61,235 nt of DNA. Source: Escherichia phage slur01. The stretch lies in sequence record NC_028831.1. One strand, written 5' to 3'. The notes under the pieces are model-generated. The model saw only the letters and a list, made by a program, of their open reading frames with translations, did not search any database and was not told the DNA's origin. The position numbers and the translations under genes are program-made. Below, piece after piece: positions 3,767-56,592 of this stretch; position 1 is the stretch's first letter; each line of letters opens with the position of its first letter.

Positions 3767-3997
3767 TTATGCAGGAATGGATTCTTCCGGTGCTTCCGGA
3801 ATAACAATCTCGATCTCTTCCTCATTCTGGAAGGTTAGTCGAAACCCGTCTCCTGGACGCCCGAAAGCAAAGGTAAGGGCTATCGTATTATCCTGCTCGT
3901 AATGACAGATACTTTCTACTTTCATTTCGTTACCGTAAAAGTCACGGTAAATCATTCCAGGTAGCGCATCGGTCGCTTTGATCTTTCTTACAGCCAT
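3767..3997 (-). CDS. hypothetical protein
   Basis: 76-aa ORF with RBS GGGGGAA; compact minus-strand operon context. Confidence 0.5.
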   Translation of the reverse strand: MAVRKIKATDALPGMIYRDFYGNEMKVESICHYEQDNTIALTFAFGRPGDGFRLTFQNEEEIEIVIPEAPEESIPA

Positions 3998-4008
3998 TAT
4001 TCCCCCGT

Positions 4009-4800
4009 TTACAGTTTGTCTTTGAACTCTTCGATATATTGCTCGATCGGATACTGCTTACGCTTGAAACGATCAAACAAGATTTTAGCAGATTCTACGT
4101 CTTCGTCGCTCTCTTTACTTGCGCCCGGTGCCATAAAATCACGCCATGTAAAACCGTTCAGATTATGCATCTTAGCGATGTGCTTGTTGTAACGGCTTTC
4201 CCAGTCCACACGCGGACCTTCCATCTTGCGTAAACCGCGCCCAAGCACCTGTACATACAAATCTTTCTGACGTTGTACAGCTTCACCATTATAAGGTCCG
4301 GTTTTAAACTCAACAACACTACCGTTAAGATCTGCACCATCCGCAAAGTTGTGTAGCATAGTTTCAATAACGTCATTCAATGTTGGAACCGTCACTTTGC
4401 CCTGGGCAATGCCTGCCAAATAACCGACGTTTTCTTCACCGTACAACTCGATCAGTTCTTTCTTGGTTGCTTCTGCTTCTTTGTTTGCGGACAAAGCCAA
4501 CATCTGTTGTTCGAACATGTGTTCCTGTTCCAGGAAGTGAGCATAGCGCTCTTCGTCTACTTTGCACACAATCCATTTATATTCAACATCCTTGCTGAAG
4601 TCCGGATACTGATCTACTTCTACTACTTCCGTAGTAAAGAACTTGCCGTTATATTGAATAACAACTGTATCGCCCGGCTGCAATTCGTCACTTTCCAGAG
4701 CACGGTAGGTATAAAGACGGCCACCTGCTTCAAACTTAACTTTGACAGTTACAACGCCTTTTAACAGAGCATGATAAGCTTTCTGAAATTCTTTACGCAT
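4009..4800 (-). CDS. hypothetical protein
   Basis: 263-aa ORF with RBS AGAGGA; no motif recognised. Confidence 0.6.
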   Translation of the reverse strand: MRKEFQKAYHALLKGVVTVKVKFEAGGRLYTYRALESDELQPGDTVVIQYNGKFFTTEVVEVDQYPDFSKDVEYKWIVCKVDEERYAHFLEQEHMFEQQMLALSANKEAEATKKELIELYGEENVGYLAGIAQGKVTVPTLNDVIETMLHNFADGADLNGSVVEFKTGPYNGEAVQRQKDLYVQVLGRGLRKMEGPRVDWESRYNKHIAKMHNLNGFTWRDFMAPGASKESDEDVESAKILFDRFKRKQYPIEQYIEEFKDKL

Positions 4801-16281: not shown

Positions 16282-16332
16282 TTATCAATCTATAATGGGC
16301 TCTACGGAGCCCTTAATTATCTGGAGGCTGTT

Positions 16333-17552: not shown

Positions 17553-17619
17553 TTGAAGAAAATATCAAATATTGGAAAGGCTTTATTGACGAAATGTTGA
17601 AACCATTGGAGAAGAAATA

Positions 17620-18012
17620 ATGCTATTAGTCGTCACCGGAGGTCGAAATTTTAAGCATGTGGAGTATATTTATGCTCAATTGGATAAGCTGCATATGCAA
17701 AGAAGGATAACCACACTTCGCCACGGTGACGCTGACGGTGTTGACCGCATTTGTGCACAGTGGGCAGAGCGCAACGGTATTAAGACAGAAGCGTTCCCTG
17801 CCCCGTGGGACAATCTTTCCTTACCAAATACCAAGATACGGTATAACGCCAAGGGTGCTTATAATGCACAAGCTGGCGCATACCGTAACCAATTAATGCT
17901 GGATACTGATCCTAAACCAGATCACGCTATTGTGTTTCCTGGCGGAGCTGGTACTATGGATATGTACAGACGGATTAAAGCATCCGGTATCCATTACACA
18001 TTAGCGGAGTAA
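17620..18012 (+). CDS. SLOG/DUF2493-like Rossmann-fold protein
   Basis: Motif series VVTGGRNF, HGDADGVDR, WAERNGI, VFPGGAGTMDM resembles YpsA/DprA-LOG (SLOG) superfamily proteins. Confidence 0.45.
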   Translation: MLLVVTGGRNFKHVEYIYAQLDKLHMQRRITTLRHGDADGVDRICAQWAERNGIKTEAFPAPWDNLSLPNTKIRYNAKGAYNAQAGAYRNQLMLDTDPKPDHAIVFPGGAGTMDMYRRIKASGIHYTLAE

Positions 18013-18015
18013 ATA

Positions 18016-18486
18016 ATGGCTGACGTTAAAACTATTGTTGATGCAATGGACGAATCCAAAGACTGCCAACTGAAGAAGTCGTTTGAAGTAAAACAGGTTA
18101 CAGAGACTCAGTTGGTCTGTAATTTTGCGCGTTATTGTGGACTGGGGCGCGGGAAAGACTGGAACGGGCTTATTGTTATGCCCACATCACAAATCCTCGT
18201 TTACGTTCGCAATATTCTTGAGGATTTATTATATCTTCAGATTGATATCGGTGATGTAGAAATCAATATGACTGCGAGCTCTACCATTGTGGTTAAATGG
18301 CAGTCGGGCGAGACACTGCGTTTGGAAGCGTGCCATTGTGCTAAGAGCCTACACCACCTGCGCGGTTGTCATTACCAGTTCGTTGGGTTTGTACATCCGC
18401 AAGGGTTAAGCGAGCGTACGGCGCTTGTAGCGCGTTTGCTTCTGCGTCCTTATAATAACGAGCCGGAAGTTATATACGAGGCATAA
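18016..18486 (+). CDS. hypothetical protein
   Basis: 156-aa ORF; no motif recognised. Confidence 0.5.
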   Translation: MADVKTIVDAMDESKDCQLKKSFEVKQVTETQLVCNFARYCGLGRGKDWNGLIVMPTSQILVYVRNILEDLLYLQIDIGDVEINMTASSTIVVKWQSGETLRLEACHCAKSLHHLRGCHYQFVGFVHPQGLSERTALVARLLLRPYNNEPEVIYEA

Positions 18487-18975: not shown

Positions 18976-19161
18976 ATGACCAAACTATACGCCGGATTGT
19001 TTTTATTTGCGACGTTGATGTTCGCTGGGCTTTATACCTATACAGTAGTCGAACAACCTTCCACGGTTATCCGAATCTTTGCAAGTACAGGGCTTTGCAT
19101 CTGTCTTATTCTATTTGTTTTATGCATTGTTATTATCCAAGACCAAAGGAAAATTAAATGA
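18976..19161 (+). CDS. Small membrane protein (two TM helices)
   Basis: Two hydrophobic segments separated by a short loop; RBS GAGGGG. Confidence 0.5.
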   Translation: MTKLYAGLFLFATLMFAGLYTYTVVEQPSTVIRIFASTGLCICLILFVLCIVIIQDQRKIK

Positions 19162-19622
19162 CCACAATTGCGTTTGATGGAAAAGTATTAGCTGCGGACC
19201 GTGGAGTTATGCGCGGGGAAGCTGTGACTGCTTATAAGAAAGTTCATAGCGTGAATGGACATCGTGGACGGTTTTTACTGGGCTTGTGCGGCCTTACAGC
19301 ATTTACCGATCAGGTGTTGCGTTATTTTAATAGCGCGGAACCTGTTAAGTTCCCTGATATTAAACTTTACAGCAAAGATGATGATTACGGGCAAACTTGC
19401 GGTCTTGCTGTCACTCCGGAAGGTACTTGCCATTTTATTTATAATGATGGTACTTTGAGCGAGCCCATGCTGGATGGATGGGGGTCTGAGGGTAGCGGTT
19501 GTGTGTTTGCTGCTGGCGCGTTAGCTGCTGGTGCAAGTGCGAGCGAAGCTATTGAGTTGGCAATTAAACACACCACATGCGCATTCCTGGGAGTTGATAC
19601 AATATCATTTGAGGGTTTTTAA
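19158..19622 (+). CDS. HslV/proteasome-like Ntn-hydrolase peptidase homolog
   Basis: Starts MTTIAFDGKVLAADRGV (Thr directly after Met, as in HslV TTIV...); GWGSEGSGCVFAAGALAAG parallels the HslV GSGG segment. Confidence 0.5.
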   Translation: MTTIAFDGKVLAADRGVMRGEAVTAYKKVHSVNGHRGRFLLGLCGLTAFTDQVLRYFNSAEPVKFPDIKLYSKDDDYGQTCGLAVTPEGTCHFIYNDGTLSEPMLDGWGSEGSGCVFAAGALAAGASASEAIELAIKHTTCAFLGVDTISFEGF

Positions 19623-19623
19623 A

Positions 19624-20115
19624 ATGGAATGGTCTTCCATATTCACTTATTTGGATGGAAAGCTGTTCTGGAAAACTTCTAGAGGTGGTAGAGTTATACC
19701 AGGAGCACTTGCTGGTCATGCTACAAAGAGGGGTTACGTCAAAATACGATGCGGTTGTAGTTTCTATCTAAGGCATCGTATAGTATGGGAAATGCATAAT
19801 GGTTCCATTCCCGAAAATATGCAAATAGATCATATTAATCACGTTCCTGGAGATGATAGGATAGAGAATCTTAGATTAGTTACAAGTACATTAAATAATA
19901 GGAACGTAACCAGATCTAAGCTTAATAAGTCTGGTGTTACTGGTGTTTGCTATCACAAAAGAAATAAAAGATGGATAGCTTATATTAATACACAGGTCGG
20001 TCAAGTAAGACTTGGCTCTTTTATTAATTTTGAAGATGCTGTCAATGCTCGTAAAAATGCTGAGATTGTATATGAATACCACGAGAATCATGGAACTGAA
20101 CGTAAGAGTTTTTGA
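19624..20115 (+). CDS. HNH homing endonuclease with C-terminal AP2 domain
   Basis: HNH core HRIVWEMHNG...IDHINHVPGDDRIENL followed by AP2 segment SGVTGVCYHKRNKRWIAYI...GSFINFEDAVNARKNAE; start re-picked at ATG with GAGGG RBS. Confidence 0.75.
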   Translation: MEWSSIFTYLDGKLFWKTSRGGRVIPGALAGHATKRGYVKIRCGCSFYLRHRIVWEMHNGSIPENMQIDHINHVPGDDRIENLRLVTSTLNNRNVTRSKLNKSGVTGVCYHKRNKRWIAYINTQVGQVRLGSFINFEDAVNARKNAEIVYEYHENHGTERKSF

Positions 20116-20884: not shown

Positions 20885-20909
20885 GACGGGGCGTTAGCCC
20901 CTTTTATTT
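20885..20909 (+). terminator. Rho-independent terminator
   Basis: GGGGCGTTAGCCCC hairpin followed by TTTTATTT. Confidence 0.55.
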
Positions 20910-50529: not shown

Positions 50530-50756
50530 TAGCGGTCCTCGATTGCTCTAATTGTGGTTAAATCTAATTCACAGGTTGGAGGGTATCCATAAAGTCCAAT
50601 TTGTTTTCCTTGTGCATTAAACCATGTACCTGACGGATCCTGCCACTGCTTAGGTGTCTTGTGGAGAAATACTACTCTGTTTTCACCGTAATAATTAATT
50701 CTTACACCTGTGTGAGTATATTTACGTTTACCTTTTGGTCTTCTTAAGTTAGCCAT
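50529..50756 (-). CDS. hypothetical protein
   Basis: 75-aa basic ORF coupled between dpdA and the downstream gene. Confidence 0.45.
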   Translation of the reverse strand: MANLRRPKGKRKYTHTGVRINYYGENRVVFLHKTPKQWQDPSGTWFNAQGKQIGLYGYPPTCELDLTTIRAIEDR

Positions 50757-51676
50757 CAGAACAACTCCATTACACGATCACGGAATGTGCCGTCATGGGT
50801 GGCGTTAATGTTTGCAGCAATTACACCATACGCCCATAAGTTGAAGGCAGCACGTGATTCATAGATTGTTGATAAACGTTCGTAAGTGAAACCGTTTTGC
50901 TCAAGGTATTTAAGGACAGCGTCTTGTTCAATTTCAGTTAATGTTGAAACATGCTTACCAAAATGGTGGCGGTCCGGCGACTTATCTGATACGCGCATTG
51001 GGCCCCACGGAGGAGTAACCACACTTCCAAACGCTGCTGCTTGAATCCAGGAGGATGAGTCACAGCTATACCACGGATAACGCTCCATAATGGTTGTGGA
51101 CGTAATACCAAACGCATGAAGTTTAATCTTAGCACGTCCGCTACCGTCGCAAATATATTTGTCCCACATGCGGTCAAGCCAAGTTTTAAGCGTGTCTGTG
51201 GAACGCCCTACCATGCCACCGATGGTGATATATTCGTAGTTCTTCATGTAGTATTCAAGATAGCGGAAGTCCTCCCCAAAGTGAAAGCAAGGTAACGGTT
51301 TAGCACCGCGTGCTTCCATTTCAAGTTGGTTACGGTAGGTTTGCAACGGATCACCGATACCATCGAGCACCGACGCCATTACTGCGCCATCTTCTACGCG
51401 AAGGATGTCTTTGTTGCGCTTGATGTATTCGCAGTATTCAACAATATCAATGTGAGCACCTAACGAGTGCGCGGAGAATGCACCGGAGTCGAGAAACACT
51501 TTAGCCCCGTCCGCACGCATCTGATCGACATACTTCTGACGCCCAACGTAGTGGTATGATTCCAAAATATGGGGCAGATTGCGCGTGATATTTTTCTCAT
51601 GCTCAGACAGCTTTTCATAACGCTGCTGGCCAGGCATATAGCCGTTAGTATACACAGCCGCCATGAATACATTCAT
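50756..51676 (-). CDS. dpdA: DpdA-like DNA-guanine transglycosylase (TGT superfamily)
   Basis: 306 aa with FLDSGAF and ITIGGMVGRS segments, encoded next to the folE-queD-queC-queE cluster; RBS GGAGG. Confidence 0.6.
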   Translation of the reverse strand: MNVFMAAVYTNGYMPGQQRYEKLSEHEKNITRNLPHILESYHYVGRQKYVDQMRADGAKVFLDSGAFSAHSLGAHIDIVEYCEYIKRNKDILRVEDGAVMASVLDGIGDPLQTYRNQLEMEARGAKPLPCFHFGEDFRYLEYYMKNYEYITIGGMVGRSTDTLKTWLDRMWDKYICDGSGRAKIKLHAFGITSTTIMERYPWYSCDSSSWIQAAAFGSVVTPPWGPMRVSDKSPDRHHFGKHVSTLTEIEQDAVLKYLEQNGFTYERLSTIYESRAAFNLWAYGVIAANINATHDGTFRDRVMELF

Positions 51677-51697
51677 ATCTTAAATAAACCTCCAATG

Positions 51698-51736
51698 ACT
51701 AAAAAGCCCATACCAGTATTATGACCGATATGGGCT
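51698..51736 (-). terminator. Rho-independent terminator (minus strand)
   Basis: AGCCCATA...TATGGGCT hairpin followed by TTTTTAG on the minus strand, downstream of the HNH gene. Confidence 0.55.
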
Positions 51737-51755
51737 TGATCTGTAAAGCTATCTA

Positions 51756-52214
51756 TTATTTAAAATTAGCTTTCTTAGTTTCGCTAATTTTACGTTTGGT
51801 TTCCTCTGTATGATGTTTCCCGTACATTGGATTCAGTTCACCATATTTTTGATACATTGGGTTATCTTTCCCAAACCGTGGACGTGTCCTTGCCCTCCCT
51901 CTAACTTTCTTATCCAACCCGTTTTGTTTTTGATCTCCTAAATATAAATGATCTGGGTTAATGCAAGACGGATTATCACATGTATGCAGAACGCACCCTG
52001 TAGCGGAATCAGGTAAACCAATTTCTCCTTTGTACAGTTTATAGCTCTCGCGATGCGCAAAACTAAAAATTCGTTCACCTTTGGAACCACTAATCATTCT
52101 ACCGTAACCGTCTTTATCCTTACTACCAGTCCAGTTCCAGCAACCAGTAGAAGGGTCTATAACGTATTTGCTTAGTCTTTCGGACATCGGCTTTTTAGTA
52201 TAGACCCTTGGCAT
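51756..52214 (-). CDS. HNH homing endonuclease
   Basis: GCWNWTGSKDKDGYGRM and HTCDNPSCINPDHL HNH_3-type motifs; inserted between folE and dpdA. Confidence 0.75.
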   Translation of the reverse strand: MPRVYTKKPMSERLSKYVIDPSTGCWNWTGSKDKDGYGRMISGSKGERIFSFAHRESYKLYKGEIGLPDSATGCVLHTCDNPSCINPDHLYLGDQKQNGLDKKVRGRARTRPRFGKDNPMYQKYGELNPMYGKHHTEETKRKISETKKANFK

Positions 52215-52215
52215 A

Positions 52216-52875
52216 TTAACGAATCCGTTGATAATTAGTAGCAGATTCTAAAAATTCTTGGCGCCATTGTTTACCAATATCACTACCATGTTCCAGCTCT
52301 GTAGCTCCACGGAAAGCTTTCGTAATAGTGCTCGAGCCACAAACCTGCTTGATTCCTCTTGCCTCCATGCACATATGCTTAGCGTCAATATAAACACATA
52401 CAGCTTTCGGGTTTAAATGCTCCTGAATAGCGTCTGCAATCTGGTTAGTAAGACGTTCCTGAACTTGCAGTCGACGACTAAAAGCATCCACAACGCGAGA
52501 CAGCTTACTAAGCCCAACAATCTTCCCATTGGGGACATAACCAACAACAGCACGACCGATGATAGGAGCCATGTGATGCTCACAATGACTGTATACAGGA
52601 ATATCACGGACAATGACCATTTCATTGGTGTTTTCCGCCCCATCCTCAAAGGTTTTAAACAGTCCAGCAATATCTACATCATAGCCCCCGAACCACGTCT
52701 GGTATGCTTTAGCAACACGATATGGAGTCTCTTCCAAACCTGGACGTAATTCAATGCAATCTTCAATACGAGTTAGTAAAGTACGCACAGCTCGAGTAAT
52801 ATCAAATTGAGTAGCTTCGTTATCAATAGTAAATTTTGGCATGGTTTGCAGTTTCCTTGTTGTTAATGTGGTCAT
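52216..52875 (-). CDS. folE: GTP cyclohydrolase I
   Basis: Signature SHCEHHMAPI and HMCMEARG motifs. Confidence 0.9.
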   Translation of the reverse strand: MTTLTTRKLQTMPKFTIDNEATQFDITRAVRTLLTRIEDCIELRPGLEETPYRVAKAYQTWFGGYDVDIAGLFKTFEDGAENTNEMVIVRDIPVYSHCEHHMAPIIGRAVVGYVPNGKIVGLSKLSRVVDAFSRRLQVQERLTNQIADAIQEHLNPKAVCVYIDAKHMCMEARGIKQVCGSSTITKAFRGATELEHGSDIGKQWRQEFLESATNYQRIR

Positions 52876-52876
52876 A

Positions 52877-53371
52877 TTACAGGCTATAGTTTACGTGACA
52901 TTTCGAAGTTTCTTCGATGGTGCATTCTACAAGTTGAACACCATGTTCGTCAAGCAGTTGTGGCCCAATTACGTTGACCATATATGCAGCTAAGTTTTCC
53001 GCAGTTGGGTTGAATGGTAAAGATACCAATGAGCTTAAGAAATGCTCATGGTCTTCATGTTCCAGAGGACAACTCGGGCGACTTGCTGCAATTTTCAAAG
53101 CGTCAATCAAATTATCACGATTCCAATGCAGGAACTTATGATCCCAATTATCTTCCAACCACTGGCAGAGCGTAGTTTTAACCACACTGAAGTCGATAAC
53201 CCGCCCAACGTCGTCCAGCAAGTTACTATTGATTTCTTGAAACCCTTTTTTCGGCGCAACCTTAAAGTGAAACTTATAGTTGTGACCGTGAAGGTGACGA
53301 CACTTACTTTCATGACCCACAACGCGGTGACCAGCGCAAATTTCATGTGAACGAATTACTGTATAACTCAT
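52877..53371 (-). CDS. queD: 6-carboxy-5,6,7,8-tetrahydropterin synthase
   Basis: Zn-binding CxxxHGH pattern (CAGHRVVGHESKCRHLHGHNY); T-fold size. Confidence 0.85.
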   Translation of the reverse strand: MSYTVIRSHEICAGHRVVGHESKCRHLHGHNYKFHFKVAPKKGFQEINSNLLDDVGRVIDFSVVKTTLCQWLEDNWDHKFLHWNRDNLIDALKIAASRPSCPLEHEDHEHFLSSLVSLPFNPTAENLAAYMVNVIGPQLLDEHGVQLVECTIEETSKCHVNYSL

Positions 53372-53925
53372 TTTAATACCTCTTTAGACTGTTCAATTTC
53401 TAACGCACGCTGCGCCGACGCAATAATGTCTTTCAAATCTTCTACAAGACTTTTATGACCGCGTTCGCCAGGCTGCAACGCCTTTTTAATCAAATGTTGT
53501 AAAGCTGGGTTAGTTGTCTTCCAAGCTTCCAAGACATCATAGACGTCCACGATGCATTTTACAACATTCCCGTTTTGATCTTTACCATAAATAACTTTCT
53601 GATATTTATTCATGGGAATTTTAGACGGTTCGTATTTCATAAAAATTGCGGTTTTGTCAGTTCGCCAATTGGGTAAATTCCCTTCAATAGCTTGCTTGGC
53701 ATAATCCTCCGCAACGATATATCGCCAGGCTATAATATCTTGAATTTTATAAGGGCTATTCTCATCCATAGCTGAACGCCCTTCTACAGCCCAATCCCAT
53801 CCATCTAATAGATTCTTAACGTGTGTGCCGTTGCGCAAACGAACTTCAAACTTTTCATTGCGAAGAAAGATAGGCATTCCTTTCCCATCGTGCTGGTGCC
53901 AAATTTTATTCAAATTATCTTTCAT
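53368..53925 (-). CDS. hypothetical protein inside the 7-deazaguanine cluster
   Basis: 186 aa from the ATG 2 nt after the upstream stop; no recognised motif. Confidence 0.5.
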   Translation of the reverse strand: MKDNLNKIWHQHDGKGMPIFLRNEKFEVRLRNGTHVKNLLDGWDWAVEGRSAMDENSPYKIQDIIAWRYIVAEDYAKQAIEGNLPNWRTDKTAIFMKYEPSKIPMNKYQKVIYGKDQNGNVVKCIVDVYDVLEAWKTTNPALQHLIKKALQPGERGHKSLVEDLKDIIASAQRALEIEQSKEVLK

Positions 53926-53927
53926 TT

Positions 53928-54407
53928 TTACACTCTCGCTGTACGTGAATGAACTTCGTAAACAATCCAAAGGATAGCGGACGCTGTGAACTTACTTAAG
54001 CTCATTGCTACCATAGATCCTGGATTAACAATACCTATAATACTTAAGAACACAATGGAATCAATTGGTACAGCTACCAAAGAGCTGATAAATACACGTT
54101 GATGAAACGGCTTCTTAGTAATCGTGTATACCGCATAGTCCGCAAACTCGCTAAGAGCAAAGGATGCAACGGATGCAACTACAACCGCAGGATTACCGAA
54201 CACCCAGCTAAGGATGCAACCAACAATCATTGCCGGGATGACGCCTTTACCAGCGTTACGCTGTGCGTAATCACGCAGGACAAAGATAATGCCTACAAAG
54301 AAAGCCATCATTGGGACTACGCCAAGTGGCGTGTTAAGCATTGGAAGGTAGGAAAATCCCAGATTTACGAATATGATTGCAGCCAAGTAAGCAACGATAA
54401 ATTTCAT
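53928..54407 (-). CDS. Integral membrane protein, candidate queuosine-precursor transporter
   Basis: Four to five predicted TM helices; encoded inside the que cluster. Function is inferred from context only. Confidence 0.35.
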   Translation of the reverse strand: MKFIVAYLAAIIFVNLGFSYLPMLNTPLGVVPMMAFFVGIIFVLRDYAQRNAGKGVIPAMIVGCILSWVFGNPAVVVASVASFALSEFADYAVYTITKKPFHQRVFISSLVAVPIDSIVFLSIIGIVNPGSMVAMSLSKFTASAILWIVYEVHSRTARV

Positions 54408-54527
54408 ACTTTTGTTCTCCAGTTTTAACAGCGCTATTCGCTGGTTGTTGGGTTTAAAAGCTTTAGTAGTATAGTTGGGTTACCGCACCCTAAACAATGC
54501 GCTAGCGGTGCGGTTTTCGCGGTAAGA

Positions 54528-55235
54528 TCAAGCTTTGCTGATAAATTCGCTATAGCCTTTAGCGCGAAGTTTACACGCCGGGCATTCCCCGCAACCGTAT
54601 CCCCAGTCATGCAGAGTGCGACGGACGCCATTATAGCACGTATGGGACTGCTCAATTACTGTGGTTAAGAAACCAACCTTATCCGCCAGCTCAAACGTTT
54701 CTGCTTTATTTAAACGCATAAGCGGAGTAACAAAATGGATATCTGTTTCATATCCAACGTTTAATGTAGCTTCAAGAAGGTCTACAAACTGCTGACGGCA
54801 ATCCGGATAACCGCTATAGTCCGTTTCACAAACGCCCGTAACCACATATCGGGCTCCAACCTTCTGCGCGTAGGCGTGCGCGGTAGTCAGGAAAAGAGCA
54901 TTACGGTTGGGCACAAAGCTTGCCGGAAGGTTGTTGTGCTGTTCGTGATGTTCGTTAACATCACCTTCGTTCCCGATTAAAGCACTATTGCCGATCTGTT
55001 TCAAAGCAGGTAATTCAAAGACAACAAACGGGACATTGTGCTCTTTACAAATTTGATTAGCACAAGCCAGCTCAATGTTATGACGTTGACCGTATGCAAA
55101 ACCAATAGCGTACACCTTATCATAGTTATTAAGCGCAAGACCCAAACAGGTCACGCTGTCCTGGCCGCCAGACAGGACGACAACGGCGGAGTTATGATTT
55201 TTTACAGGGAATACCAGTTTATCTAATTTATTCAT
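54528..55235 (-). CDS. queC: 7-cyano-7-deazaguanine synthase
   Basis: PP-loop VLSGGQDS and C-terminal Zn motif CGECPAC; 235 aa with no amidotransferase fusion. Confidence 0.9.
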   Translation of the reverse strand: MNKLDKLVFPVKNHNSAVVVLSGGQDSVTCLGLALNNYDKVYAIGFAYGQRHNIELACANQICKEHNVPFVVFELPALKQIGNSALIGNEGDVNEHHEQHNNLPASFVPNRNALFLTTAHAYAQKVGARYVVTGVCETDYSGYPDCRQQFVDLLEATLNVGYETDIHFVTPLMRLNKAETFELADKVGFLTTVIEQSHTCYNGVRRTLHDWGYGCGECPACKLRAKGYSEFISKA

Positions 55236-55236
55236 T

Positions 55237-55425
55237 TTAGAAACCTTTAAGGCTAATATTAAGGTTAATGACTACTTGTTCAACTACAGCTTCAGAGGTT
55301 ACCTGACGCTGGTGTATCTCAAGCTCCGTATGTATTTTCTTGGATGCAGCACGACAAATAGCGTCATTCAACTCGTCTTGTAAACGTTGAATTTTCTGCA
55401 TAAGGATTACAGTTTCTTCATTCAT
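55237..55425 (-). CDS. hypothetical small protein in the que cluster
   Basis: 62-aa ORF between queC and queE. Confidence 0.4.
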   Translation of the reverse strand: MNEETVILMQKIQRLQDELNDAICRAASKKIHTELEIHQRQVTSEAVVEQVVINLNISLKGF

Positions 55426-55630
55426 TTACTTCACCTTTAATATCACAAGGGTTGATTGTTACGTTAGACATTACAATTGGATGATTGCGCGCTCCAATTG
55501 TGCTAACGTGATTAATATCTAATTCTACATGCACGCCCTGCATAGTAGCGTGAGCAATTGAAGAATTAAGTTTTTCTACCAGCTCAGTAATCATTTCCTG
55601 ATGCTGTTTCGCTTCTTCCAAAGTGATCAT
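55418..55630 (-). CDS. hypothetical small protein in the que cluster
   Basis: 70-aa ORF; shares a loose pattern (hydrophobic-H-x-EL-x-I-x-H...V-x-x-N-x-x-I) with 55237..55425. Confidence 0.4.
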   Translation of the reverse strand: MITLEEAKQHQEMITELVEKLNSSIAHATMQGVHVELDINHVSTIGARNHPIVMSNVTINPCDIKGEVNE

Positions 55631-55885
55631 TTAAACCTCCGTTAATGTTTGAGTCCAGTCTAAGCCTTCAAGATCTACATCAGCTATTTCATCGTACTCG
55701 TAAGCTTCCGGATCTGCTGGCAACCATCTATCAAAGCGATGGCTAAGTTCTGGAGGAATTGCTTCATACCCCCAAACCTTCCCATCCTTGTCGGCTGCCA
55801 GATAATCAACTCGACTTGGAACGGTTAAAGTGACACCACAAAAATTAACATCTTTAGTATGCACAACCTGGCTTAACACACGCAT
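55631..55885 (-). CDS. hypothetical protein, small paralog family member
   Basis: YLAADKDGKVWGYEAIPPE...DLEGLDWTQTL matches the family at 15750..15989 and 16333..16629. Confidence 0.5.
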   Translation of the reverse strand: MRVLSQVVHTKDVNFCGVTLTVPSRVDYLAADKDGKVWGYEAIPPELSHRFDRWLPADPEAYEYDEIADVDLEGLDWTQTLTEV

Positions 55886-56592
55886 TATTCCACTCCGATA
55901 TATTTGTGAACCTGAAGCTGCAACGTGTAACCGTGTTTCATACAGCTTTGGACAACGGCTTGGATATTACTGTGGTTAAGGTCTTCATCCTGCTCGTCCA
56001 TTGGCTGTAAATATATCTTACCCTTGAAACCCTTCGGAGGTCTAGCGATAAATGGCGTAGCTTGATGATCTAATGCCTGAAGCGGCAAACCATCTTCCAC
56101 GTTTACACAGCACGCTTTAAGTACATATTTAAATGCATTAGCGCGGCGCAGCACAGAAGGATGAATCTTTGAGGTCTTGGGACTACATACAATTACAGGT
56201 AACTGGGAAAAGTTCTTAGGTAAAGGCATAGACCCATTAGTTTCAATTTGCACCAAATACCCGCGCGATAACAGTTGTTCAATAAACGGGTTAATTTGCT
56301 GACGGAACGGTTCACCCCCAGTGATAACCACAAGTGAGGTGCTATTACCTGATTCCAGCTTACGGCTTTCGATTAAACGCATAATATCGACAATATGATA
56401 AAGACTACGACCAACAGTATAATCCGTATCACAGCCAGGACATTGCAGGTTGCACCCAGCAAGACGCACAAATACAGCAGGTTGTCCGCAGAATGGACCT
56501 TCACCCTGAATGGTAGAGAATACCGAATGCACGTCTAAATACATATCGTTTTCTTTAGAACGAGACTCGGGAGCTTGTTGATTAATATTCAT
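55885..56592 (-). CDS. queE: 7-carboxy-7-deazaguanine synthase (radical SAM)
   Basis: Radical-SAM cluster motif CNLQCPGC; 235 aa; coupled to the downstream gene. Confidence 0.85.
   Translation of the reverse strand: MNINQQAPESRSKENDMYLDVHSVFSTIQGEGPFCGQPAVFVRLAGCNLQCPGCDTDYTVGRSLYHIVDIMRLIESRKLESGNSTSLVVITGGEPFRQQINPFIEQLLSRGYLVQIETNGSMPLPKNFSQLPVIVCSPKTSKIHPSVLRRANAFKYVLKACCVNVEDGLPLQALDHQATPFIARPPKGFKGKIYLQPMDEQDEDLNHSNIQAVVQSCMKHGYTLQLQVHKYIGVE

Follow-up and report, generated by a model that had tools for sequence, protein, structure and literature searches.

The window analysed here is the 61,235-nucleotide genome of Escherichia phage slur01 (sequence record NC_028831.1), and our subject is a gene within it that encodes a SLOG-domain protein. 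The window is a complete Seuratvirus genome (Queuovirinae), circularly permuted and colinear with phage Dru_SM1 (DruSM1 below). Landmarks include a ligase gene at ~2.2 kb, the large terminase (TerL) gene at 22.4 kb and a 7-deazaguanine cluster at 50.7-56.6 kb. The SLOG gene sits in a co-directional block of small open reading frames (ORFs), upstream of the lysis cassette and the terminase genes. It is the ortholog of CAjan gp82 and DruSM1 ORF83 (WZK98996.1), and over the gene region Seuratvirus genomes, SLUR75, Skure, CAjan and Seurat among them, share 97-98% identity with slur01. The stop codon occupies positions 18010-18012, immediately before the start of an ORF84 ortholog. Coordinates are listed in Table 1.

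Table 1. Features of the SLOG locus and related regions of the slur01 genome.
Feature	Residues	Nucleotides	Strand	Basis or remark
Shine-Dalgarno-like GGAG, 8 nt 5' of ATG		17608..17611	+	sequence read directly
YAcAr (DUF2493) SLOG-domain gene, stand-alone, ATG..TAA	130 aa	17620..18012	+	ORF list and raw sequence
Motif GGRNF	7-11	17638-17652	+	sequence
G7-G8-R9 loop after strand 1; predicted phosphate-binding loop of the SLOG pocket	7-9	17638..17646	+	98-99% conserved; compare DprA 'GSR'
Motif HGDADGVDR	35-43	17722-17748	+	sequence
G36-x-A38-x-G40-x-D42 after strand 2	36-42	17725..17745	+	94-100% conserved; same spacing as Smf SGLARGID
21-residue beta-hairpin insertion, 'long' YAcAr subfamily	64-84	17809..17871	+	gap versus short forms in alignment
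Invariant R89-N90	89-90	17884..17889	+	100% conserved; compare LOG 'RK', DprA 'RNR'
Motif FPGGAGTMDM	106-115	17935-17964	+	sequence
P107-G-G-x-G-T-x-D114-M115, LOG-like PGGxGTxxE loop with Met at the catalytic Glu position	107-115	17938..17964	+	hhalign to PpnN and conservation
ORF84 ortholog, large-terminase-ATPase-like fold, translationally coupled; separate from the SLOG protein		18016..18486	+	ATG 3 nt after SLOG stop
ORF of PHROG 4049	141 aa	18488..18913	+	translationally coupled to ORF84 ortholog
HslV/proteasome-like peptidase gene		19158..19622	+	PHROG 1040
HNH_3 homing-endonuclease gene		19531..20115	+	real start probably ATG near 19624
Terminator-like hairpin GGGCTC-TACG-GAGCCC		16297..16312	+	
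Terminator-like hairpin GGGGC-GTTA-GCCCC, then T run		20888..20901	+	
7-deazaguanine DNA-modification cluster: dpdA/TGT, folE, queD, queC, queE		50756..56592		

A preliminary description of the locus, made from the sequence alone, had placed the product among SLOG/DUF2493-like proteins. Profile searches bear this out. The Pfam family PF10686 (YAcAr, for YspA, cpYpsA-related SLOG family; the renamed DUF2493) matched with 65.6 bits against a gathering cut-off of 28.2 (E=3.5e-18), and the match covers residues 3-64 and profile positions 3-64 of 66. PHROG 289 was also matched (E=9e-23). All 120 of the 120 homologs among the profile-search matches listed carry PF10686. The fold, which the preliminary description had singled out for checking, is a three-layer alpha/beta Rossmannoid and lies nearest to known SLOG structures rather than to an unrelated class. 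We consider it close to certain that the product is a small, basic Rossmannoid protein consisting of a YAcAr-family SLOG domain on its own.

Conservation was scored in an alignment of 415 unique family sequences assembled in this analysis. The three motifs first noticed at the locus are present and coincide with invariant positions of the family, which places them above chance. Conservation reaches 99%, 98% and 99% at G7, G8 and R9, 100% at G36, G40 and D42, and 94% at A38. In the C-terminal half, R89, N90, G111 and T112 are found in 100% of sequences, G108 in 99% and M115 in 94%. The slur01 protein has every position conserved at >=94%, including W48, W63, the RN pair and PGGxGT-x-D-M. Judged from these residues, the family-invariant ligand pocket (GGR loop, GxAxGxD, RN and PGGxGT) is intact. 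Its features may be compatible with a ligand that is a nucleotide, either free or part of DNA, or with a derivative of ADP-ribose. About half of the family has a short loop, with 6 residues between W63 and A85, and about half is long, with a beta-hairpin of 21-23 residues. The slur01 protein is of the long form, its insertion containing strands 73-76 and 79-82 in the structure model. In long forms Y81 is invariant and position 74 is K or R in 86%.

Public labels for the gene are 'GTP-binding domain', 'phosphoribosyl transferase', 'putative DNA binding protein' and 'hypothetical'. We rejected the first (PHROG 289; RefSeq/pharokka); there is no GK[ST] in the 130 amino acids and the fold is that of SLOG, not of a P-loop nucleoside triphosphatase. 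This label probably derives from guanylate-kinase-fused members, such as that of Clostridium phage c-st. Neither sequence nor fold gives support for a phosphoribosyl transferase. Neither the protein nor the family profile retrieved anything meaningful in sequence searches of the PDB; weak BtuF matches (E~0.005) were dismissed as generic Rossmann-like.

The protein was compared with better known SLOG proteins. By eye, the motif series of Escherichia coli Smf/DprA (VVGSR, SGLARGID and RRNRII) recurs with the same spacing as VTGGR, HGDADGVD and YRNQLM. The isoelectric point (pI) of the slur01 protein is 9.5, and the family median is 9.1. At the sequence level, both motif set and basic pI are DprA-like. 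However, the SAM and winged-helix domains of DprA/Smf (PF02481; PDB 3MAJ, 4LJK, 3UQZ) and Shosta ShosA (8ZVA) are absent. The signature GxD/E marks substrate binding in the YpsA-like SLOG clade (PMC6459960). G40-x-D42 fits this signature, the equivalence coming from motif order and secondary structure, not superposition. YpsA of Bacillus subtilis, the founder of this clade (PDB 2NX2; 178 amino acids, 14% identity), has a role in cell division and oxidative stress in Firmicutes, whereas YAcAr forms a Pfam family apart, marked by invariant W48, W63, RN and PGGxGT-x-D-M. Identity to the SLOG domain of ThsA from type I Thoeris (PDB 7UXS, 3'cADPR-bound; cADPR, cyclic ADP-ribose) is 11%. There the SLOG domain comes joined to a SIR2 effector and serves host defence, whereas the slur01 protein is stand-alone. 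PADLOC models of the SLOG modules of ThsA, ShosA and TIR-SLOG gave no match at E<=0.01.

The LOG family is defined by the motif PGGxGTxxE, which includes the catalytic Glu. When the YAcAr profile was aligned with the single E. coli PpnN sequence by hhalign, only the 15-residue PGGxGT loop aligned. Here FPGGAGTMDM pairs with FPGGVGTAEE, so that M115 takes the place of the catalytic Glu. The adjacent D114 is D in 84%, N in 9% and H in 5% of the family. The LOG hidden Markov model (PF03641) did not match the protein at E<=1, and gave only a sub-threshold, 23-bit local match in one tandem-YAcAr relative. Other differences from LOG/PpnN (PF03641; PDB 5WQ3, 1WEK, 9US2) are GxAxGxD in place of GGGxxGxMG and a size half that of typical LOG proteins. 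R89 is invariant, and the PpnN alignment stopped short of the LOG 'RK' region. The EVADES preprint maps R89/N90 onto R115/K116 of Cg1261 and equates D114 with the LOG Glu (10.1101/2025.06.06.658234). From structural similarity and an AlphaFold 3 (AF3) complex with AMP, it predicts a LOG-like nucleotide 5'-monophosphate phosphoribohydrolase that would split AMP, or a nucleotide related to it, at the N-glycosidic bond (10.1101/2025.06.06.658234). We think this improbable: with Met at the Glu position in 94% of the family, N or H at position 114 in 14% and no PF03641 match, canonical LOG catalysis, and with it AMP-phosphoribohydrolase activity, appears unlikely from the sequence. Catalysis through another acid, such as the invariant D42, is conceivable.

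The family is very large and extends well beyond phages of this type. An exhaustive profile search found 23,685 clusters (50% identity) at E<=1e-3 and 9,049 at E<=1e-10. By tblastn, 679 phage records were recovered, including Ackermannviridae, Klebsiella podophages and phages of Vibrio, Mycobacterium, Rhodobacter, Rhizobium and Bacillus. Homologs were also found on 407 plasmids, half of them conjugative, and structural matches include proteins of the archaeal virus HGTV-1, Pandoravirus and Marseillevirus. Immediate neighbours were collected at 160 viral and bacterial loci. The ~125 genes per side fall into ~105 unrelated families, and hence there is no universal operon partner. Recurring Pfam classes among them are superfamily 2 helicases, DNA methylases, ParB, HNH, ThyA/ThyX, ribonucleotide reductase, DnaB, uracil-DNA glycosylase and Toprim. 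NADAR was encoded by 3 of 120 downstream genes.

On plasmids the family takes a particular form. The YAcAr domain is the C-terminal part of a ~310-amino-acid protein, the N-terminal domain of which has no assignment, and the gene lies 3' of a DUF7146-Toprim gene. A Toprim gene, or one combining the CHC2 zinc ribbon with Toprim, was directly upstream in 6 of 10 sampled plasmids. The Toprim-YAcAr module recurs on conjugative plasmids and was seen on alphaproteobacterial and Campylobacter plasmids, often with a strawberry-notch helicase gene upstream and with WGR-domain, DUF736, DUF932 or traG genes nearby. Fusions join YAcAr to the DnaG CHC2 zinc ribbon, to NADAR or to DUF4326 (DUF4326 + YAcAr), and one protein of 1099 amino acids combines a NADAR-DarT1-type part with three YAcAr copies and DUF4326. 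Tandem YAcAr proteins also occur, which suggests that the domain functions in dimeric or oligomeric form. As a hydrolase, NADAR is now known to act on ADP-ribosylated guanine in DNA; thus, the NADAR and the DNA-metabolism contexts can both converge on DNA. The Aravind group interpreted links to NADAR, Macro and DUF4326 as processing of soluble ADP-ribose signals (PMC9503650, PMC7824862). HelB of phage ICP1 is a superfamily 1B helicase with a C-terminal DUF2493 (bioRxiv 671271).

A phenotype has been reported by others for the DruSM1 ortholog. Ojima and co-workers made a library of knockouts covering 73 genes of the Seuratvirus DruSM1 (bioRxiv 10.1101/2024.04.14.589459). Deletion of ORF83, ORF55, ORF72 or ORF84 reduced plating, and gave smaller plaques, on cells with AVAST type III (Avs3); ORF55 is an ATP-dependent DNA ligase and ORF72 is KfrA-like (10.1101/2024.04.14.589459). 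The ORF84 deletion had the strongest effect (about 1e-4), and the ORF83 deletion sensitised only to AVAST III among ~33 defence systems (10.1101/2024.04.14.589459). Among the cloned inserts ORF83 is entered as 'Anti-AVAST typeIII', and trans-complementation is given as restoring resistance; according to the supplement, ORF84 could not be cloned (10.1101/2024.04.14.589459). The supplementary ORF83 deletion primers map onto the slur01 ORF boundaries, and the GGAG region is an exact match to a deletion primer. The ATG and the last seven codons are kept and the deletion is therefore in frame.

The two proteins are nearly the same. Of 130 residues, 126 are identical (97%), length and flanking genes are shared, and the four substitutions (N10D, V14A, D95N and H124P) are all at variable positions. 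All family-invariant residues are identical, and both genes are translationally coupled to ORF84. EVADES describes an 'anti-Avs protein ORF83' with residues R89, N90, T112 and D114, numbered identically to slur01 (10.1101/2025.06.06.658234). Hence, the gene has been recorded before as anti-defence (DruSM1 ORF83; EVADES database entry, 2025). By orthology, with the phenotype transferred from DruSM1, the slur01 gene is probably an accessory counter-defence gene. Of the functional guesses in the preliminary description, that of a role against host defences stands on the ORF83 phenotype. Handling of modified nucleotides finds no backing in gene linkage or family distribution, and interception of nucleotide signals does not suit Avs3, which is signal-free.

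The neighbouring ORF84 ortholog is 100% identical to DruSM1 ORF84. The SLOG-ORF84 pair is kept in relatives at ~70% (SLOG) and ~57% (ORF84) identity, and no ORF84-like gene lies beside YAcAr genes at the other 159 loci, outside the Seuratvirus group. The ORF84 family itself is very small: among 5.8 billion proteins it makes up 16 clusters, and it occurs in 33 phage records. Its profile aligns to residues 44-137 of slur01 TerL, directly after the Walker A sequence GPGKT (hhalign probability 79-86%, E 1.6e-5 to 4.6e-6), and this sequence evidence is independent of structure. When the profile was compared with 322 slur01 ORFs, TerL was the sole non-self match (E=0.0035; next best 0.4). The hhalign score was 42.6, against 13.4 +/- 2.7 (maximum 21.8) for 100 TerL shuffles. 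ORF84 has no Walker A loop. It resembles a piece of the phage's own TerL, from the ATPase domain, and is a probable terminase mimic. A terminase-derived decoy is an attractive hypothesis because the ORF84 deletion is the most Avs3-sensitising and Avs3 senses the TerL ATPase domain; ORF84 could be a decoy for this terminase sensor. No mention of such a decoy was found in the EVADES preprint or in searchable Avs papers. DruSM1 has an extra ORF of 68 amino acids, ORF85, between ORF84 and the 141-amino-acid gene, whereas slur01 lacks it at the 18486/18488 junction. The block around ORF84 thus appears to be a small, variable accessory island. Deletion of ORF85 (3973-4179 of the Dru_SM1 stretch compared) sensitises DruSM1 to qatABCD.

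SeAvs3 binds the large terminase, residues of its active site and bound ATP included, forms tetramers and switches on a nuclease that degrades double-stranded DNA (PMC13601566). Avs3 uses no diffusible nucleotide signal (PMC13601566), and so a sponge or signal-degrading activity does not explain the phenotype. EVADES reads the anti-Avs3 DNA ligase as repair of Avs3 cuts (10.1101/2025.06.06.658234). We propose that the SLOG pocket binds a nucleotide-type ligand and that the protein would not act as a canonical LOG AMP-phosphoribohydrolase, the catalytic Glu being Met. The ligand, we infer, would most likely be the nucleotide moiety of a nucleic acid, such as single-stranded DNA, DNA ends or base-modified or ADP-ribosylated DNA. 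The protein would then support maintenance and replication of the phage genome while the Avs3 nuclease attacks it, beside the DNA ligase (ORF55) and the co-translated terminase-like ORF84, and would not work by intercepting a second messenger. A YAcAr SLOG protein with a counter-defence role and a DNA-directed pocket is our best explanation overall, with a probability of roughly 0.45. The DNA-directed mechanism as such is tentative and open to considerable doubt. It draws on the Smf/DprA motif spacing, the basic pI, the DNA-metabolism neighbours, plasmid Toprim, the DnaG-ribbon and helicase fusions, degradation of double-stranded DNA by Avs3, and a ligase being an anti-Avs3 gene.

Several observations weigh against this explanation. 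The family profile gave no Rossmann-domain alignment with the single E. coli Smf sequence in hhalign, and the Pfam DprA profile (PF02481) does not match the protein, so that the DprA likeness is by eye only. ORF83 is without the DprA residues for dimerisation and RecA binding, and AF3 docks AMP in ORF83 confidently, with an interface predicted TM-score (ipTM) of 0.9 (EVADES, 10.1101/2025.06.06.658234). For ORF83 with RecA the ipTM was 0.18 (EVADES, 10.1101/2025.06.06.658234). Neighbours in DNA metabolism and a basic pI are non-specific and weak as evidence, and the NADAR/DUF4326 fusions fit small-molecule ADP-ribose chemistry equally. The phenotype comes from one preprint, in which efficiency of plating values appear in figures only, and identical cloning primers are listed for ORF83, ORF84 and ORF85 in a supplementary table (10.1101/2024.04.14.589459). 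As these three rows share a primer pair, documentation of the complementation constructs is inconsistent. The repeated forward primer matches the ORF85 start and the reverse primer the ORF83 end; the sequence given for the ORF83 insert is nevertheless right. Since small plaques are common to four unrelated genes, the effect could be an indirect fitness cost.

Other ligands can be weighed against DNA. The Aravind-lab prediction for viral YpsA-like SLOG proteins would have the protein sense, soak up or enzymatically degrade immune signals derived from NAD+/ADP-ribose, for example cADPR isomers, with the Avs3 phenotype secondary. The sole phenotype is, however, against a system with no diffusible signal, and ORF83 deletion has no reported phenotype on Sir2+HerA or other NAD-linked systems of the panel. 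There is no PADLOC match to SLOG modules of defence systems, and most family members stand alone among DNA-metabolism genes. The NADAR fusions need no soluble ligand, since NADAR acts on ADP-ribosylated guanine in DNA. We judge a signal-directed role unlikely, on a par with LOG-type hydrolysis. Processing of 7-deazaguanine (preQ0-type) nucleotides for DNA modification is suggested by the dpdA/TGT, folE, queD, queC and queE genes of the phage, and SLOG enzymes can cleave or exchange nucleotide bases (PMC9503650). Yet the SLOG gene is ~33 kb from the que/dpdA cluster in another transcription block, most homologs are in phages or plasmids without a known 7-deazaguanine pathway, and none of 236 immediate neighbours is a que or TGT gene. 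Moreover, DruSM1 ORF83 is dispensable for plating. Family distribution and the missing linkage led us to reject this connection, which we rate as very improbable.

Two further readings concern the phenotype itself. The SLOG protein might inhibit Avs3 directly at the protein level, or be an obligate subunit with ORF84 that blocks the Avs3 sensor. Translational coupling of the pair, its retention at 70%/57% identity, Avs3 sensitisation by both deletions and the likeness of ORF84 to the Avs3 ligand, the TerL ATPase domain, all agree with this. Avs3 also reads terminase-bound ATP and ORF84 has no Walker A, so a nucleotide-binding partner is conceivable. Such a role sits badly with a family of 23,685 clusters that keeps a strictly invariant, small-ligand-type pocket far from Avs3 contexts. 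ORF84, moreover, is limited to 16 clusters and has no counterpart in the other 159 YAcAr loci, and the ORF83 deletion is given as complemented by ORF83 on its own. We hold direct inhibition to be less probable than either LOG-type hydrolysis or a signal-directed role. Similarly low odds attach to an indirect phenotype, whereby the deletion lowers general fitness or replication speed or is polar on ORF84 and the real role is unrelated housekeeping in nucleotide or DNA metabolism. Small plaques were seen with all four Avs3-sensitive mutants, in functionally unrelated genes (ligase, KfrA-like, SLOG and ORF84); polar effects were raised by Ojima et al. themselves, ORF84 was not clonable, and the source is a single preprint. 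Conversely, the in-frame deletion leaves the ORF84 ribosome-binding region, ORF83 is listed in the supplement as a validated 'Anti-AVAST typeIII' insert, and sensitisation is limited to AVAST III among the ~33 systems. A bolder reading joins SLOG and ORF84 in a two-gene anti-Avs3 module. ORF84 would be a Walker-A-less TerL decoy, and SLOG would handle the Avs3-read nucleotide, by binding, presenting or removing what Avs3 reads on terminase, or else Avs3-made DNA ends. YAcAr domains would then more broadly be a hitherto uncharacterised class of DNA- or nucleotide-acting factors, with which phages, giant viruses and conjugative plasmids establish themselves in new hosts. This is speculative and, taken whole, rather unlikely.

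The SLOG/DUF2493 assignment is correct but routine, the family being in Pfam, and novelty is low because a near-identical DruSM1 gene is already catalogued as anti-defence. New here are M115 at the LOG Glu position, the DprA-like motifs and pI, the DNA-metabolism neighbours, the plasmid Toprim pair, the NADAR and DUF4326 fusions, the lack of 7-deazaguanine linkage and the wide spread of the family among phages for which no 7-deazaguanine modification is known. The options are narrowed by these data: canonical LOG catalysis is unlikely, a 7-deazaguanine link is unsupported and the context is DNA-centred. The family numbers ~24,000 clusters, from phages, conjugative plasmids and bacterial chromosomes to archaeal and giant viruses; to identify the YAcAr ligand would account for a gene that is very common on mobile elements and reveal how a nucleotide-binding fold can blunt a protein-sensing STAND nuclease. 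If ORF84 is a terminase mimic, it would represent a new kind of Avs evasion. The mechanism of the widespread YAcAr family and the terminase-like ORF84 are the points that deserve attention.

Pfam and PHROG scans of nine flanking ORFs found only PHROGs of unknown function, the HslV-like peptidase and the HNH endonuclease, and neither NCBIfam nor PADLOC gave a match for the SLOG protein or for the genes beside it. In a promoter and terminator scan of 12.5-22.5 kb, counts were not above shuffled expectation. The best two terminator-like hairpins flank the SLOG block (Table 1); the overall terminator count was not above chance. The 141-amino-acid ORF has a weak N-terminal match, below threshold (E=0.042), to the catalytic-Cys region of peptidase C39, and its DruSM1 counterpart, ORF86, is among the genes that resisted deletion. 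The HNH_3 endonuclease gene follows that of the peptidase and looks like a mobile insertion, since CAjan has no such gene there. In the 7-deazaguanine cluster, nucleotide identity to DruSM1 falls noticeably, to 86% in folE and 80% in queD, whereas the flanking genes are at about 96%.

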